Positions 1-4,896 of a stretch of 4,896 nucleotides of DNA are shown here, piece after piece. The stretch lies in IMG/VR virus record IMGVR_UViG_2630968911_000001. The stretch is one strand, 5' to 3'. Within the stretch, counting starts at the first letter, position 1. Every line of letters starts with the position of its first letter. A program made the position numbers and the translations under genes. The DNA is from a virus (taxonomy: Duplodnaviria; Heunggongvirae; Uroviricota; Caudoviricetes). Under the pieces are notes generated by a model. It worked only from the letters and a program-made list of their open reading frames with translations. It was not told where the DNA came from and ran no database searches.

Positions 1-18
1 CACTTAGCCGCGTGTCCA

Positions 19-723
19 CTATTGCTGGGTAAGATCAAAGGTTGAATCAGAACCTAGATATTTAATCTCTGGATTTTTTGCGTTACCAATAATTTCATAT
101 TTTGCTGGAAGCTCAATGTCTCTGGTCTTCATTCCATATATGCCAGAACCTTTCAAGTGAATTTTTCTTGCGCCTGAAGCGAATGCCTTCTGAAAGGCTA
201 TGCTATTATCTGTTTTTCCAGAATCATCTTTGCCACCAAAGTCTTCCAAAAATACAAAATCATCCAGCTTTTCTTGTACATTCCTGAAGACAGCACCATC
301 AACAACAGAAGGTAATCCATACTTATACTTTACTGTTTCAGGGAATGCCCCGCTTGCAAACTCTCCCTCTAGCTCATGCCGGAACTGGTCCGGGTCATAC
401 TTGAGAATGTTTGGATAGTAGAACTGCTGTGTGCCATATGCGTCATACACAGCCATTGAATGTCCCTGTACGGTAACGAACTTTGCAATCTGTCCGTTAT
501 ATACAGGGTAACCAGCGGCGTTAATGATGATTGGTTGCGAAACAGGAACGTGAGAGCCGTCTTCGTTCTCTACATAAACCTGAATCTGGTTTTCAGGATT
601 TGTCGGGTCAGTGTCAATTTTACCGATATAAATTTTGCCATTGGCAACCGCTTTAAAAGAACGCGCCATAGTGAAAAGTTGCGAAGGCATACTCACTACA
701 ACATTGGCTGTAATGTCTGTCAT
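19..723 (-). CDS. Tailspike protein, N-terminal head-binding domain (P22 gp9-like) plus start of a divergent receptor-binding domain; ends prematurely, so possibly a pseudogene or truncated gene
   Basis: The 234-aa ORF begins [40 protein letters not shown]...TVQGHSM...LKYDPDQ, which I recognise as the conserved N-terminus of P22-type tailspikes (full-length proteins are about 600-700 aa). [21 protein letters not shown] motif at aa 161-180 resembles the start of a pectate-lyase-like beta-helix. On the minus strand GGAG (732..735) sits 8 nt upstream of the ATG at 721..723. The ORF stops at TAG (19..21) and a second in-frame stop follows at 4..6. Confidence 0.8.
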
Positions 724-887: not shown

Positions 888-2885
888 CTATTCTGACAAC
901 GCATCAGACTTAACACCCTGCGTCATAGCGTTAATAGCCTTTTGTGCCTGCTGCATGGCTTTCTCAAACGCTGTTGATCCGCGTGGGGTATTTGCCATTC
1001 GTAGCATTGCATTTCTGAATGGCTCACTCTCATAGGCGCGAGCAAGAAGGCCGTAGCTTACTGCAGCGCCAGTTGTCGCAGGGTTCATTGCTGTCCCATA
1101 TCCGATAATGAACGGAATGGTTTGCTGACCTGTAGGAGTTGTTACTGCTGCTTTTGCTGCCTGCTGAGTGGACTGAAGGTAGTTTTTCAATCCTTTCAAA
1201 TAAGCGGCTTCCTGACCCTTAAATGTGATGCCAGTCTGGTTTTGCAGGATGTTAAGCTGCCGAAGGAACTGGTCAGGGGCTCCGCCTGATTTCTCCATCG
1301 CTTTTCCAATGATGCCATTGCGCATTTGCGCCCTGCCAACACGACCAACTGAGTTATACAGCGTCTTAATTTCCGATTTGTTCTTGCTGAATAGCATGTT
1401 GTTGACAACTTCCGGCGTCAGGTCTCCTTTCATGAGAACATTCTTCAGCCTGGTATTCTTTAGTTTCGCCGCTTCGTCAGCGTAGACGGCATTGGCCTGC
1501 TGATATTTACGGAGAGTATCGTTGCCAAGATTCTGACCAATGGCACCATTGATATCGTCGGTCATCGCCTTGTAAACACGTTGAATGGCGGCATCGGAAC
1601 GGTTTGGTAACACTGGTCGCTCCCCCTTCACATCCATTCTGAACTGGCTGCGCAGATCGCTTAATTGCTTCAAATCCAGATTTACCGGACCATCAGGGCC
1701 AGCATTGCGAACAAGCTCATCACGATATGACTGAAGTTTTGAAATTGTCTCGTTATCAGCTACCTTACCAAGCTTCTGCAGATTAGATATCTCAGTATCA
1801 ATCTGCTGAATTGCTCGCGCAGGCTGGATATTGACTCCCGCCATTGCATTCTGAACCTGCTCAAGACGGTTCCCTGCAGCACGACGAATTCCTGACGTTT
1901 TAGCTTTAAGGCTGTCAATAACAACCGCTGGATCATACTCACCGAATTTATCAGCAAATCTCTGCACCAACTGGCTTCTCGCTTCCTGTTGCGTTGCTCT
2001 CATTCCGCTTGTGCCAGCCAGAGGGATATTTTCTGCTGTAGTCTGCGCCATTTTTCCGACGCGGGAAGTTGGTTGTAACAGGTCTGTGGTGTGCAGAGGA
2101 ATTCCTTCACGCTCTGCAAATCTGATAGCCTGCTGCGCTTCTGGCGCGATAGCACCACGAACGCCACGATAAGCAGCACCTAATCCACGTCCAGCAGCGT
2201 TAATAGCACCGCCAGCAAGTACACCAACGCCTAAATCGGTGGCGAGTGCTTCCGCATCATCTTTCGCACTATTTGCAGCAAGTGATCCAACTGCGTTTTC
2301 TGCCAGAAGGCGAGTTGCCCCCTGAGCAATTCGACCAGCAAGTGTTGGTGCCTGTGCTGCCGCTCTCTCAACGCCAGCAGGAGTGAGGTAAGGCAATGCT
2401 TCAGCAAATACTCTTCCCTCTGTCGTTTGTGGAGTCAGCGCGCCTTGCTGAAGGCCAAAGTCCTGCTCTAATCCCTGCGTTGTTACTCGTGGAGCTGGTT
2501 GATATGTACCATCGCCAATGCCGAGTTTACCGCCAGCCCAAGCCGCCGCGCTTGTTACAGCATCGGCAACTGATGCAGGTATGTTTGCCACGTTCACGCC
2601 AGCCTGCACCAGTCCGCGACCTGTTTCTTTCGCGGCTTCACCAAGATCAGACATAAATCCACTTTGCTGTGGTTGTTGCTGTGATACTGGTTGTTGTATC
2701 TCCACTGGCTGCACAGATGGCAATGGATAGGCAGCATAGAAAGCTTGCTTAGCCTGCTCTGCATTTTCTCCGGCTTTCGGGGCCACGACTTCATTGAAGT
2801 ATTGCTCCTGAGCCTGCGCTTTTTGTTCTGGTGCTAACGCCTGATACTGTGGAGAGGCGATAACATCTTTCCATGCTTTAGCCAT
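888..2885 (-). CDS. Phage ejection (DNA-transfer / internal virion) protein, P22 gp16/gp20-like
   Basis: A 665-aa ORF sits immediately upstream of the tailspike in the same orientation, which is the position of the ejection proteins in P22-like genomes. It is Ala/Gln/Gly-rich with a Q/P-rich low-complexity linker (aa 57-76) and a Gly/Ala hydrophobic segment (aa 217-239). Its ATG (2883..2885) overlaps the upstream stop as TAATG, and a GGGGTGA Shine-Dalgarno-like sequence (2889..2895, minus) precedes it. The family assignment is by context and composition, not a verified alignment. Confidence 0.6.
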   Translation of the reverse strand: MAKAWKDVIASPQYQALAPEQKAQAQEQYFNEVVAPKAGENAEQAKQAFYAAYPLPSVQPVEIQQPVSQQQPQQSGFMSDLGEAAKETGRGLVQAGVNVANIPASVADAVTSAAAWAGGKLGIGDGTYQPAPRVTTQGLEQDFGLQQGALTPQTTEGRVFAEALPYLTPAGVERAAAQAPTLAGRIAQGATRLLAENAVGSLAANSAKDDAEALATDLGVGVLAGGAINAAGRGLGAAYRGVRGAIAPEAQQAIRFAEREGIPLHTTDLLQPTSRVGKMAQTTAENIPLAGTSGMRATQQEARSQLVQRFADKFGEYDPAVVIDSLKAKTSGIRRAAGNRLEQVQNAMAGVNIQPARAIQQIDTEISNLQKLGKVADNETISKLQSYRDELVRNAGPDGPVNLDLKQLSDLRSQFRMDVKGERPVLPNRSDAAIQRVYKAMTDDINGAIGQNLGNDTLRKYQQANAVYADEAAKLKNTRLKNVLMKGDLTPEVVNNMLFSKNKSEIKTLYNSVGRVGRAQMRNGIIGKAMEKSGGAPDQFLRQLNILQNQTGITFKGQEAAYLKGLKNYLQSTQQAAKAAVTTPTGQQTIPFIIGYGTAMNPATTGAAVSYGLLARAYESEPFRNAMLRMANTPRGSTAFEKAMQQAQKAINAMTQGVKSDALSE

Positions 2886-3511
2886 TAATCACCCCATAGT
2901 GAAGAAAAGTTACTGCCAGTAGTAGATTGTTGCCCTGGCATATTCTGCACCGGCTCCTGATAATCAAACTGTTTTTTAACAGTGCTCAACTTGCTTTCAA
3001 GCTGATTTCTAATCTTTCCGATAGAGTCACGAAAAGCCTTTTCACTCATTTTGGGGCTTAGGGCACCAACCGCATCGGATAATTTTTTACCCTCAGCATC
3101 TGAAAGAGCGCCCATACCCTTCAGGGACTGCACCATAGGAAGGAAAGTTTGAGCTTTAAAGGTGTCGAGCCTTGCTTCAAAGTTAGCCGCATCAGAGCCA
3201 GGAACTGTCGGAAACGCTGAGCGAATTCCTACTGCTTTTGAAAGGCCAGGGCTTTGCTCTATCTCGTTGAGAGAATCAAGCGCGGTGCTGAACGTATCAA
3301 CTGCACCCTGAGCAGCGGCCTGCCTGTCAGCGCGGGCTATGTCAGCCTTTTGCCGAACATCTGCCTGTTTCTGTTTTAGCTCTTCAAGCTTTAACTGATT
3401 GCTTTCTCTGGCTATTTGTCTGTCCAGAGCCTTTTCTTGTAATTCTGCTCTTTGTATTTCGCGGGAAAGAGCAGCATTCTGTGCGCTGATGTTCTGTCCA
3501 CGTAATGGCAT
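2885..3511 (-). CDS. Coiled-coil phage ejection-protein-like ORF, probably the 3' portion of a gene truncated at its 5' end (P22 gp20-like or gp7-like)
   Basis: The 208-aa ORF has a strongly charged heptad-like N-terminal half (REIQRAELQEKALDRQIARESNQLKLEELKQKQADVRQKADIARADRQ) and is translationally coupled to the downstream 665-aa gene. There is no convincing Shine-Dalgarno upstream of its ATG, and an in-frame stop lies only 4 codons upstream (3524..3526). Confidence 0.5.
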   Translation of the reverse strand: MPLRGQNISAQNAALSREIQRAELQEKALDRQIARESNQLKLEELKQKQADVRQKADIARADRQAAAQGAVDTFSTALDSLNEIEQSPGLSKAVGIRSAFPTVPGSDAANFEARLDTFKAQTFLPMVQSLKGMGALSDAEGKKLSDAVGALSPKMSEKAFRDSIGKIRNQLESKLSTVKKQFDYQEPVQNMPGQQSTTGSNFSSLWGD

Positions 3512-3552
3512 TGAGCAGGCAACTCACTGGATGCCACTACCGGAACCGCCGC

Positions 3553-3558
3553 AGGAGG
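3553..3558 (+). promoter_or_regulatory. Shine-Dalgarno (AGGAGG) for the ASCH-like gene
   Basis: AGGAGG is followed by a 6-nt spacer and an in-frame GTG at 3565. Confidence 0.6.
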
Positions 3559-3564
3559 TTAACC

Positions 3565-3849
3565 GTGGCTAACCTGCAACTTGCCGTCAAAGGTGAATAC
3601 TTCGATGCCATTATTCGCGGAGAGAAAACTGAAGAGTATCGCCTGTGTAATGACTACTGGAATAAGCGAATTATGTTCCGGGAGTATGACCGCCTGATTA
3701 TCACAAAGGGATATCCGAAGCGCGACGATTCCAGCCGCAGAATTGACGTCCCGTATGACGGATATGAAATCAAGACAATCACACATCAGCACTTCGGCGA
3801 TAAACCGGTAAAGGTGTTCGCGATAAAGGTGAATATCGGCAATGAATAA
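3565..3849 (+). CDS. ASCH/PUA-like domain small protein (YqfB-like fold), accessory early-left gene
   Basis: The listed ORF 3505..3849 has no ribosome-binding site at its ATG, whereas the in-frame GTG at 3565 has a consensus AGGAGG. The 94-aa product begins MANLQLAVKGEYFDAIIRGEKTEEYR, matching the N-terminal beta-strand and G-x-K-T motif pattern of ASCH domains (compare YqfB ...DDILAGRKTITIRD). Assignment is from motif recollection only. Confidence 0.55.
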   Translation: MANLQLAVKGEYFDAIIRGEKTEEYRLCNDYWNKRIMFREYDRLIITKGYPKRDDSSRRIDVPYDGYEIKTITHQHFGDKPVKVFAIKVNIGNE

Positions 3850-3850
3850 C

Positions 3851-3880
3851 AATCCTCGAACTCGCGGGGATTTCTTTTAT
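3851..3880 (+). terminator. Putative intrinsic terminator-like hairpin 1
   Basis: Stem 3853-3858 / 3865-3870 (tcctcg/cgcgggga, 6 bp including one G-U), a 6-nt loop, then the U-rich run tttcttttat (3871..3880). It starts 4 nt after the ASCH stop codon. Confidence 0.35.
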
Positions 3881-3883
3881 CTG

Positions 3884-3908
3884 AACTCGCTACGGCGGGT
3901 TTTGTTTT
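3884..3908 (+). terminator. Putative intrinsic terminator-like hairpin 2
   Basis: Stem ctcgc (3886..3890) / gcggg (3895..3899) with tetraloop tacg, extendable by A-U pairs, followed by ttttgtttt (3900..3908). It is an imperfect direct repeat of hairpin 1 (gaactcgc...GGG...TTTnTTTTAT). Confidence 0.45.
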
Positions 3909-3921
3909 ATGGAGACAAGAA

Positions 3922-4266
3922 ATGTCAGATTTGGCTATGAAGGTTTTGAAATGGCAATCGACTGGCGATGTCGGCATCAGTAGCGCAACTCTTGCCTCAA
4001 TCGCATGTGGACTGAAAAAGAATATCTATGGTCATCACTTCGGCGCTCCCCATGACGCAGCAGATTTCCGGCGATGCGTTGCGCTTGTTGAGCAGATTAC
4101 AGAAATCAGAGATTCATTCGACAAGGTTGCAAAGCGCGTTCCGGCATTCAAAGGAATCCTCAACGAATGGGATTCCCTCGTTGCTCTGTTGAAGTCTGAA
4201 ATGAAGATACACGGAAACAAAGCACCAGAGACTTACAGAAGAATCAGCGAGCTACGCAAGGACTAA
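3922..4266 (+). CDS. Hypothetical protein (114 aa), accessory early-left gene of unknown function
   Basis: ATG at 3922 is preceded by GGAG (3911..3914). The ORF runs to TAA at 4264..4266 in the same orientation as the flanking genes. I recognise no family; there is a C-x7-HH-x4-H-x7-C spacing at aa 29-51. Confidence 0.55.
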   Translation: MSDLAMKVLKWQSTGDVGISSATLASIACGLKKNIYGHHFGAPHDAADFRRCVALVEQITEIRDSFDKVAKRVPAFKGILNEWDSLVALLKSEMKIHGNKAPETYRRISELRKD

Positions 4267-4269
4267 CCC

Positions 4270-4288
4270 GCCTCACACTCGATGAGGC
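4270..4288 (+). other. Short GC-rich hairpin between the hypothetical gene and xis
   Basis: gcctca (4270..4275) pairs with tgaggc (4283..4288) around the 7-nt loop cactcga. No strong U-tract follows (ctgtacatttctc). Confidence 0.25.
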
Positions 4289-4353
4289 CTGTACATTTCT
4301 CAAGATATCCAGACCTACCGCAATCATGTCAATCCAATAAATGGAGATTCCAG

Positions 4354-4701
4354 GTGGAAGAAGAAATCTTCACTCGTGAAGAAGCTGCGTCGTATCTGAA
4401 GGTAGACAAAGGCACTATCACACAGTGGATACGAAGTGGACGACTTCAGGCCGCAAAGATAAATCCAGATAAACCTAAAAGTCCATATCGCATTTGCAAG
4501 TCAGACTGCATTGCGGCGCTTAAGTCTGTGAGACACAATAGCGCGGTGAATGCGGTTGATGTGCAGGAGGTTAAAGCATGTCAATCAAACTACGCGGTGG
4601 CACGTGGCACTGCGATTTCGTCGCGCCAGATGGATCAAGAGTTAGACGCTCTCTTGAAACATCGGACAAAAGGCAAGCGCAAGAACTTCACGATCGTCTA
4701 A
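4354..4701 (+). CDS. xis: Excisionase-family helix-turn-helix DNA-binding protein (Xis/AlpA-like)
   Basis: An in-frame GTG at 4354 is preceded by GGAG (4343..4346). The product contains TREEAASYLKVDKGTITQWIRSGRLQAAKI, a typical excisionase-type HTH, and sits immediately upstream of the integrase gene. The listed ATG at 4282 lies inside a hairpin with no ribosome-binding site. The 3' end is uncertain because the frame overlaps the int start by 124 nt. Confidence 0.6.
   Translation: MEEEIFTREEAASYLKVDKGTITQWIRSGRLQAAKINPDKPKSPYRICKSDCIAALKSVRHNSAVNAVDVQEVKACQSNYAVARGTAISSRQMDQELDALLKHRTKGKRKNFTIV
4565..4570 (+). promoter_or_regulatory. Shine-Dalgarno (AGGAGG) for int
   Basis: AGGAGG is followed by a 7-nt spacer and ATG at 4578. 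Confidence 0.6.
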
Positions 4702-4896
4702 AAGCAGAAGCGTGGAGAGTAAAAAATCTCGGGGAATCACCGAAAAAGCTATTCAAGGAAGCCTGCATACGGTGGCTGCGTGAGAAATCGGATAAGAAGT
4801 CCATTGATGATGACAAGAGCATTATATCGTTCTGGATGTTGCACTTCAGAGAAACCATTCTCTCAGACATAACAACAGAAAAAATAATGGAGGCGG
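4578..4896 (+). CDS. int: Tyrosine recombinase / phage integrase, N-terminal region (partial; 3' end beyond the window)
   Basis: This frame is open from ATG 4578 to the window edge and is missing from the ORF track only because it has no stop inside the window. The translation MSIKLRGGTWHCDFVAPDGSRVRRSLETSDKRQAQELHDRLKAEAWRVKNLGE... matches the conserved N-terminal arm-binding region of lambdoid and P22-type integrases as I recall it. It has a strong ribosome-binding site and xis immediately upstream. Confidence 0.8.
   Translation, partial: MSIKLRGGTWHCDFVAPDGSRVRRSLETSDKRQAQELHDRLKAEAWRVKNLGESPKKLFKEACIRWLREKSDKKSIDDDKSIISFWMLHFRETILSDITTEKIMEA

Follow-up and report, generated by a model that had tools for sequence, protein, structure and literature searches.

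How phage genes of the late operon and genes of the early-left operon can come to lie head to head is the question raised by the locus described here, a stretch of 4896 bp that was analysed as a whole and is called the window in the following. As predicted from the sequence, the minus-strand 208-aa ORF at the end of the late genes (2885-3511) and the plus-strand gene of an ASCH-domain protein diverge from each other at a distance of only 53 bp (3512-3564). The original prediction interpreted this arrangement as the scar of an internal deletion in a defective P22-like prophage. Based on our data, such a deletion is by far the most probable origin of the locus, and the join itself can be placed to the base.

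Chromosomal context and gene content of the window

The window matches the chromosome of Escherichia coli G4/9 (NZ_CP060073.1, 3619151-3624046), a strain from human faeces (Germany), with 100% identity over its full length, and among 5,426 complete E. coli genomes none besides G4/9 reaches 80% coverage of the window. The window also corresponds to the entire draft contig JPKJ01000066.1 (GCA_000768415.1). This contig stops at the left edge of the window because the end of an IS3 element occupies positions 1-37, and the right edge lies inside an integrase gene whose 3' end is duplicated, together with the att site, 11 kb away. Coordinates outside the window refer to L001, the stretch of the G4/9 chromosome that holds the window plus 20-kb flanks (L001 8835-9205 lies at about chromosome position 3608105). 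The features of the window are compiled in Table 1. RefSeq/PGAP lists three of them as incomplete pseudogenes, namely the tailspike gene (C-terminus missing) and the gp20 and DUF551 pieces (N-terminus missing); the gp20 fragment (2885-3505) is misnamed 'acyltransferase' by PGAP.

Table 1. Features of the 4896-bp window, with the evidence for each assignment.
Feature	Position	Strand	Basis
IS3 (1258 bp), right end, inserted in the tailspike gene	1-37	-	ST3 tailspike alignment, IS3 annotation
P22-type tailspike gene, 5' part: head-binding domain and start of receptor domain	38-723	-	Pfam, PHROGs, PGAP
gp16-type DNA ejection (transfer) protein gene, intact, 665 aa	888-2885	-	phrog_770, Sf6 gene 13
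gp20-type ejection gene, 3' fragment, residues ~228-433 of 433	2885-3504	-	phrog_2534, ST3/Sf6 alignment, PGAP
Deletion junction, 3-bp microhomology GTA common to both parents	3502-3504		base-level alignments
DUF551/EaA-like early-left gene, 3' remnant, last 22 codons and stop	3502-3572	+	Pfam, L006 alignment, PGAP
ASCH-domain gene, 94 aa, GTG start	3565-3849	+	phrog_625, weak Pfam ASCH match, PGAP
Two terminator-like hairpins after ASCH	3851-3902	+	hairpin scan
Early-left gene of unknown function, 114 aa, phrog_1229	3922-4266	+	PHROG match
Excisionase (HTH_17)	4282-4701	+	Pfam HTH_17, phrog_2907
Tyrosine integrase gene, 5' part	4584-4896	+	PGAP; extends to L001 25738, abuts thrW and attL

On the late-gene side, the order tailspike/gp16/gp20 of P22 is present, and nucleotide identity to genes 12-14 of Sf6 is 94%. 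The gp16-type gene encodes a DNA transfer protein of phrog_770 (E 1e-237) and shares 94% nucleotide identity with Sf6 gene 13, which has the same length. The tailspike ORF (19-723, 234 aa) matches tailspike PHROGs and contains the full Pfam domain Head_binding (PF09008, E 6e-68, residues 1-113). After codon ~229 the tailspike is split by the 1258-bp IS3 (L001 18780-20037), whose transposase is annotated at L001 18810-19972, and the distal tailspike piece is found at L001 17699-18772. The ST3 tailspike aligns to L001 until 18779 and resumes from 20038, with a 3-bp overlap that represents the target duplication of the insertion. The 234-aa ORF terminates in IS3-derived codons (DLTQQ and the stop). 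An IS3 end recurs at L001 12072, and an identical copy of the IS3 transposase is present 8 kb away within a tandem prophage.

On the right side, the phrog_1229 gene holds the same position in the prophages L015-L024, and an exact look-up of the 114-aa phrog_1229 protein returned the window's own contig only. A segment of 48 bp (3868-3915), overlapped by the hairpins, recurs with 100% identity at the early-left end of the ST3 prophage, which has no other similarity there; it marks a conserved mosaic joint between modules. The true start of the excisionase is probably at 4354, which gives a product of 115 aa rather than the 139-aa ORF: phrog_2907 aligns to residues 25-139 of this ORF, and other assemblies call the 115-aa product. 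The integrase gene abuts thrW, the gene of tRNA-Thr(CGT) (L001 25753-25828), and a 64-bp direct repeat (att) at L001 14571-14634 and 25735-25798 contains the integrase stop region and the 3' 46 nt of thrW.

Position of the junction

Alignment to P22-like genomes, which had been suggested for locating the breakpoint, gave sharp limits on both sides. Late-gene homology ends at position 3504 in hundreds of phages and genomes from the phage collection and the E. coli genomes, and early-left homology begins at 3502 in every match. Base by base, Sf6, ST3 and PSJ-16 are identical to the window on the gp20 side up to 3504 and unrelated past that, and on the DUF551 side 933W and L006, a prophage with DUF551-ASCH, are identical from 3502 and unrelated before. 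The physical junction is therefore the trinucleotide GTA that both parents share. This shifts the scar, which had been placed at 3512-3564: according to the junction alignments the true join (3502-3504) is located 8 bp inside the 208-aa ORF. Likewise, the 53-bp stretch is not a gap, as positions 3502-3572 are not intergenic and represent the 3' end of a truncated DUF551/EaA-like gene. The 24 residues encoded by 3498-3572 give a Pfam match to the C-terminal end of DUF551 (PF04448, E 1.5e-6), covering the final 17 of its 68 profile positions (52-68), and the remnant aligns to the 191-aa DUF551 protein of L006. Its stop codon overlaps the start of the ASCH gene by 8 bp, the usual arrangement for a DUF551 gene. 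The ASCH gene itself (GTG start at 3565, preceded by AGGAGG at 3553-3558) matches phrog_625 over its full length (E 1e-50); a scan of genome contigs with the ASCH protein returned 11 distant loci only. Both gp20' and DUF551' lack their 5' ends, and they meet at one junction.

No insertion sequence is present at this junction, where phage sequence from both sides is joined directly at GTA. An IS-mediated adjacent deletion was considered and rejected, as no IS end is found at the junction and the nearest IS3 is 3.5 kb off. By our own estimate, a microhomology of 3 bp is expected in ~5% of random joins; therefore the shared GTA fits microhomology-assisted joining without proving it.

The 208-aa ORF covers positions 229-435 of 435 only of phrog_2534, the gp20-type family (E 1e-91). 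It is the C-terminal half (3' 48%) of a gp20 homologue of 431-435 aa, of which the 5' 52% has been deleted. Its residue 4 aligns with residue 229 of ST3 gp20 (433 aa) and with residue 227 of Sf6 gp12 (431 aa), and the gp20-derived part starts at about the third residue. Two properties of this ORF had been put forward in support of a deletion, and both were recovered on reading the sequence: four sense codons separate the ATG from an in-frame TGA (3526-3524) at the fifth codon position upstream, and no Shine-Dalgarno-like sequence precedes the ATG, in line with the claimed lack of a ribosome-binding site. The minus-strand ATG (3509-3511) is an accident of antisense DUF551 sequence. Besides, a consensus scan around the junction (near 3400-3650) found no sigma-70-like promoter, and the possibility that the junction created a promoter was rejected on this ground.

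Extent of the remnant and comparison with intact relatives

The att repeats delimit a remnant of 11.1 kb (9.8 kb without IS3), and between the two att copies only gtrA, gtrB, a gtrC-like gene, the distal tailspike piece, IS3, the proximal tailspike piece, gp16, gp20', DUF551', ASCH, phrog_1229, xis and int are found. Reading the 20-kb flanks, we found no head, terminase, lysis, replication or immunity genes annotated between the repeats. The expectation that head, lysis and immunity genes are missing around the window was thereby borne out, and structural genes that continue past the window, which would have pointed to an unusual but complete genome, are absent between the att repeats as well. 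The predicted content of the element, integration/excision functions and a receptor-binding module without structural or replication genes, is correct for the first and last parts, as int and xis are kept and head and replication genes are lacking; it fails for the receptor-binding module, since the tailspike is not intact and is split by IS3. Measured against the criteria for satellites (P4-like, PICI, cf-PICI), genes for own replication, helper hijacking or packaging are absent from the annotation of the 11.1 kb. The element is a defective P22-like (Lederbergvirus-type) prophage at thrW.

At the same att site, a tandem lambdoid DLP12-like prophage carries a head-to-head scar of its own (L001 8835-9205), in which the minus-strand replication gene P (N-terminus missing) abuts a shortened plus-strand gam, with gam homology from L001 8955. 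This P/gam scar is another immunity-region deletion.

A picture of the lost interior is provided by the ST3 prophage (bioA/ybhC), an intact relative in which ~30 kb separates the two points that are joined in G4/9; the predicted distance between the two blocks in an intact P22-like prophage is thus seen directly. Away from gp20, the order in ST3 is gp7, gp14, gp26, gp10 and gp4, then coat, scaffold, portal and terminase, followed by lysis genes, antiterminator, nin region, replication genes, cII, cro, repressor, sieB, recombination and ea genes, and finally xis and int. Sf6 and ST3 share with G4/9 the tailspike head-binding domain and the gp16 and gp20 homologues in the same order and orientation, at 94-96% nucleotide identity, and ST3 additionally has the gtrABC block, with an identical GtrB accession. 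In contrast to G4/9, in which everything upstream of gp20 codon ~228 is gone, both have a full-length gp20 (431 aa in Sf6 and 433 aa in ST3), which is followed by the complete set of virion, lysis, replication and immunity genes. The right half of the locus has its counterpart in the lambdoid early-left region of 933W and mEp213/mEp043, where the order DUF551(EaA-like)-ASCH-small ORF-xis-int is the same: 933W is 96-97% identical to G4/9 over DUF551'-ASCH, and mEp213 is 96.8% identical over phrog_1229-xis-int. In these phages, however, the DUF551 gene is full-length (191-229 aa), and ead/Ea22, recombination and pL-proximal genes lie ahead of it.

Remnants of a related kind are known from other E. 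coli lineages. The cryptic prophage CPS-53/KpLE1 of K-12 is defective and P22-like, and it has kept the tailspike/O-antigen modification end; its integration site and breakpoint probably differ from those of G4/9. A P22-like remnant in E. coli O104:H4 retains the tailspike and an O-antigen acetylase beside a deletion (Scholl et al., 2012; PMC3303846). Like G4/9, it is a defective P22-like element whose tailspike/O-antigen modification end was kept after deletion of the neighbouring DNA; unlike the IS3-disrupted tailspike of G4/9, its tailspike is intact and functional, and integration site and breakpoint are different (PMC3303846). A literature search on strain G4/9 or on Symbioflor prophages returned nothing relevant.

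Recurrence and probable inheritance of the junction

The junction is not a feature of circulating phages as far as these are represented in the collections: none of 50,697 phage records spans it, so that the predicted absence of an intact phage with this divergent order holds for these records, and it was found in 0 IMG/VR contigs. At least 15 contigs, which come from assemblies and samples independent of each other, code for a 208-aa protein identical to the chimeric one of the window. These carriers show 99.5-100% nucleotide identity to the window, and one of them is a 1.78-Mb NCBI contig at proA/thrW. Some carriers have suffered further damage: gp16 is split into three ORFs in one of them (L007), and an IS21 lies between gp16 and tailspike in another (L008). 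The recurrence at 99.5-100% identity, together with separate damage in individual carriers, fits a scar that arose once and was inherited in drifting DNA.

One contig deserves separate mention. L009 (1-2940), a Logan contig (ERR2137892), contains the G4/9 scar and is 100% identical to the window until position 3915; past this point (3915-3924) it switches to a lambda-type hyp-xis-int arrangement beside ybhC, the att-lambda site. Either genuine recombination or a chimeric assembly via the shared 48-bp segment could account for L009. The scar beside a lambda-type int at ybhC is not explained by a purely vertical history, unless L009 is chimeric or recombinant.

A single internal deletion as the probable origin of the locus

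Homology limits, truncated genes, the gap seen in ST3 and the flanks all agree with the proposal of an internal deletion between the early-left region and the ejection-protein genes. We therefore consider it highly probable (roughly 0.92) that one event of illegitimate recombination, in which a P22-like prophage at thrW lost ~30 kb of its interior, left this junction. Since both flanks of G4/9 have the orientation seen in ST3, a deletion rather than an inversion has to be assumed. The size of the deletion and the single step are derived from relatives with 94-97% identity, because a search for a parent prophage with near-100% identity on both sides found none.

Mechanistically, the lost segment would extend from gp20 codon ~228 over gp7 and the head, terminase, lysis, nin, replication, immunity and recombination genes up to a point 22 codons before the end of DUF551. 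This interior would have been removed in a single step, and the broken ends were presumably joined at GTA independently of RecA, by microhomology-assisted joining or end joining. In this way, the promoter-less tail of the late operon (leftward) would have been brought against the equally promoter-less tail of the pL operon (rightward), which should leave the late-gene fragment and the ASCH-xis segment without their normal promoters and the late fragment transcriptionally silent. With the repressor, pL, pR, the late promoter region and the lytic functions gone, a harmless, non-inducible and non-lytic remnant of 11.1 kb would result that keeps attL, attR, int, xis and the gtrABC genes for O-antigen modification. 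Such a remnant would then be passed on vertically while decaying, as suggested by the IS3 that splits the tailspike and by two carriers, one with an IS21 and one with frameshifts in gp16. That gtrABC, int and xis look intact may be due to selection for serotype conversion, or to the mere recency of the event. The G4/9 remnant is a textbook kind of object, i.e., a prophage rendered defective by internal deletion in the course of ordinary prophage decay.

Clustered breakpoints and alternative explanations

Comparable breaks are found in other prophages. Among the 5,426 complete genomes, one other genome, PSJ-16, carries the 5' half of gp16 within 1.4 kb of a phrog_1229 gene. The PSJ-16 remnant (dacD/sbcB) resembles that of G4/9 in that a head-to-head block of oac-tailspike-gp16-gp20' is joined to phrog_1229-xis-int. 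It differs in the length of gp20' (927 bp), in the right break, which falls within the last 13 codons of ASCH, in the microhomology at the junction (TAA), and in the att site and the O-antigen modification gene. The PSJ-16 remnant arose independently of the G4/9 remnant. The distance from the start of gp16 to the start of phrog_1229 is 1037 bp in both, made up of 620+417 bp in G4/9 (window 2885-3922) and of 927+110 bp in PSJ-16 (L004 10492-11529); we estimate the odds of such a coincidence at roughly 1 in 1000. Homeologous recombination as the cause of the equal spacing was rejected, as the in-register identity of gp20 and DUF551-ASCH is 25.6% (z = 0.6).

Further breaks in the DUF551 gene came to light among contigs that encode an identical ASCH protein (L019, L021 and L023). 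In L019 and L021, ninE' is joined to DUF551' with the microhomology TA, 27 bp upstream of ASCH (7974-7975, corresponding to window 3538-3539). The underlying 18.75-kb deletion (L001 4786-23537) has both sides 100% identical to G4/9; it starts from ninE of the tandem prophage and removes int2, att, gtrABC, tailspike, gp16 and the first scar. In L023, located at dsdC (argW region), a head-to-head fusion connects the 3'-terminal 48 bp of DUF551 with a truncated tape-measure gene of another prophage type (phrog_2276, positions 315-656 of 673); the fusion point is at ~7953, corresponding to window ~3517. In the L016 remnant, the break lies 1.3 kb further upstream. Here (6621-6731, yfdC/dsdC), only ead'-DUF551-ASCH-phrog_1229-xis has been kept beside host genes, which shows that prophage deletions from the other side also occur. 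A scan of metagenomes with the 5' end of ASCH returned 45 contigs and no new scars.

An imperfect inverted repeat, GTAATGGCAT/ATGCCACTAC, occupies 3502-3511 and 3531-3540, with 9 of 10 positions paired and a loop of 19 nt, and the ends of its stem coincide with the breakpoints of G4/9 and L021. Breakage directed by this hairpin was not accepted and is kept as a lead only: the fold is weak (-8.1 and -9.5 kcal/mol; z = -1.7 and -3.1), and it is absent from the 933W and L015 alleles. It is conceivable that the 3' end of DUF551 upstream of ASCH is a preferred breakpoint, either as a fragile site, perhaps in connection with the hairpin, or because cells gain by keeping ASCH-phrog_1229-xis-int, although we regard this as unlikely.

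A related alternative goes further and assumes a selected or mobile mini-element, satellite-like or domesticated, which is kept for int/xis, ASCH-phrog_1229, gtrABC and/or the ejection and tailspike genes, and whose junction reflects a recombination hotspot or selection. Such an element would account for three independent junctions with right ends within 37 bp upstream of ASCH (3502-3504, ~3517 in L023 and 3538-3539 in L019/L021), for the stem base of the imperfect 10-bp inverted repeat exactly at both breakpoints of the G4/9 lineage, for the break inside gp20 with identical 1037-bp spacing in PSJ-16, and for the same scar at a second att site in L009. However, the 11-kb remnant contains no replication, packaging-hijack or regulatory gene, and the IS3-split tailspike, the gp16 frameshift in one carrier and the flanking IS21 in another speak for neutral decay. 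The junction is absent from viral contigs, the DUF551 frame is intact in nearly all of the 45 contigs that the metagenome scan for this ASCH 5' end returned, and the hairpin (-8 to -9.5 kcal/mol) is weak and missing from other alleles. Moreover, the junctions are very few and came to attention post hoc, and L009 is possibly an assembly chimera through the 48-bp shared segment. Taken together, we judge a mini-element to be very unlikely.

Integrases that target tRNA genes exchange strands in the anticodon-loop part of the att core. In this context, a site-specific rather than illegitimate event has to be considered, in which the prophage integrase recombined two att-like secondary sites: the junction reads CGTAATG (3501-3507), and its reverse complement, CATTACG, occurs where the thrW att core covers the anticodon loop. 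Yet, the parental sites have GTA alone in common, i.e., 3 bp of the 7-bp overlap, neither endpoint is the att site itself, and the junctions of L021, L023 and PSJ-16 lie at other sequences. By our own estimate, chance alone would produce a 7-mer match in about one of two comparisons of ~60 bp with 64 bp on two strands. We consider an integrase-mediated origin highly improbable.

Finally, an assembly artefact, an inversion or an IS-mediated rearrangement with the missing genes elsewhere has next to no probability. Such an origin could be suspected because repeats (IS3, and int shared with the tandem prophage) delimit the draft contig of the window and three IS3-family copies are present within 15 kb. 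Against it, the junction lies mid-contig and was recovered at 99.5-100% identity from a closed genome, the 1.78-Mb contig and over 10 independent assemblies, no IS is located at the junction, and the native orientation of both flanks excludes a simple inversion.

Implications of the junction

The internal deletion of a P22-like prophage at thrW has consequences for annotation as well as for the view of prophage decay. The junction accounts for two PGAP pseudogenes, including the one misnamed 'acyltransferase', and the 208-aa ORF, which gene callers report in at least 15 assemblies, becomes removable as spurious. Besides, being defined to the base, the junction can serve to mark the lineage of a group of commensal E. 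coli. If the 3' end of DUF551 should indeed be a preferred breakpoint, P22-like and other lambdoid prophages would repeatedly collapse to the same two-ended remnant, and the 1037-bp spacing would be a consequence of this and no coincidence. The locus presents the case of a P22-like prophage that was disarmed, presumably in one step, while the integration module and the O-antigen-modifying genes were kept, and incoming phages may draw on the remnant for tailspike and ejection-gene DNA.
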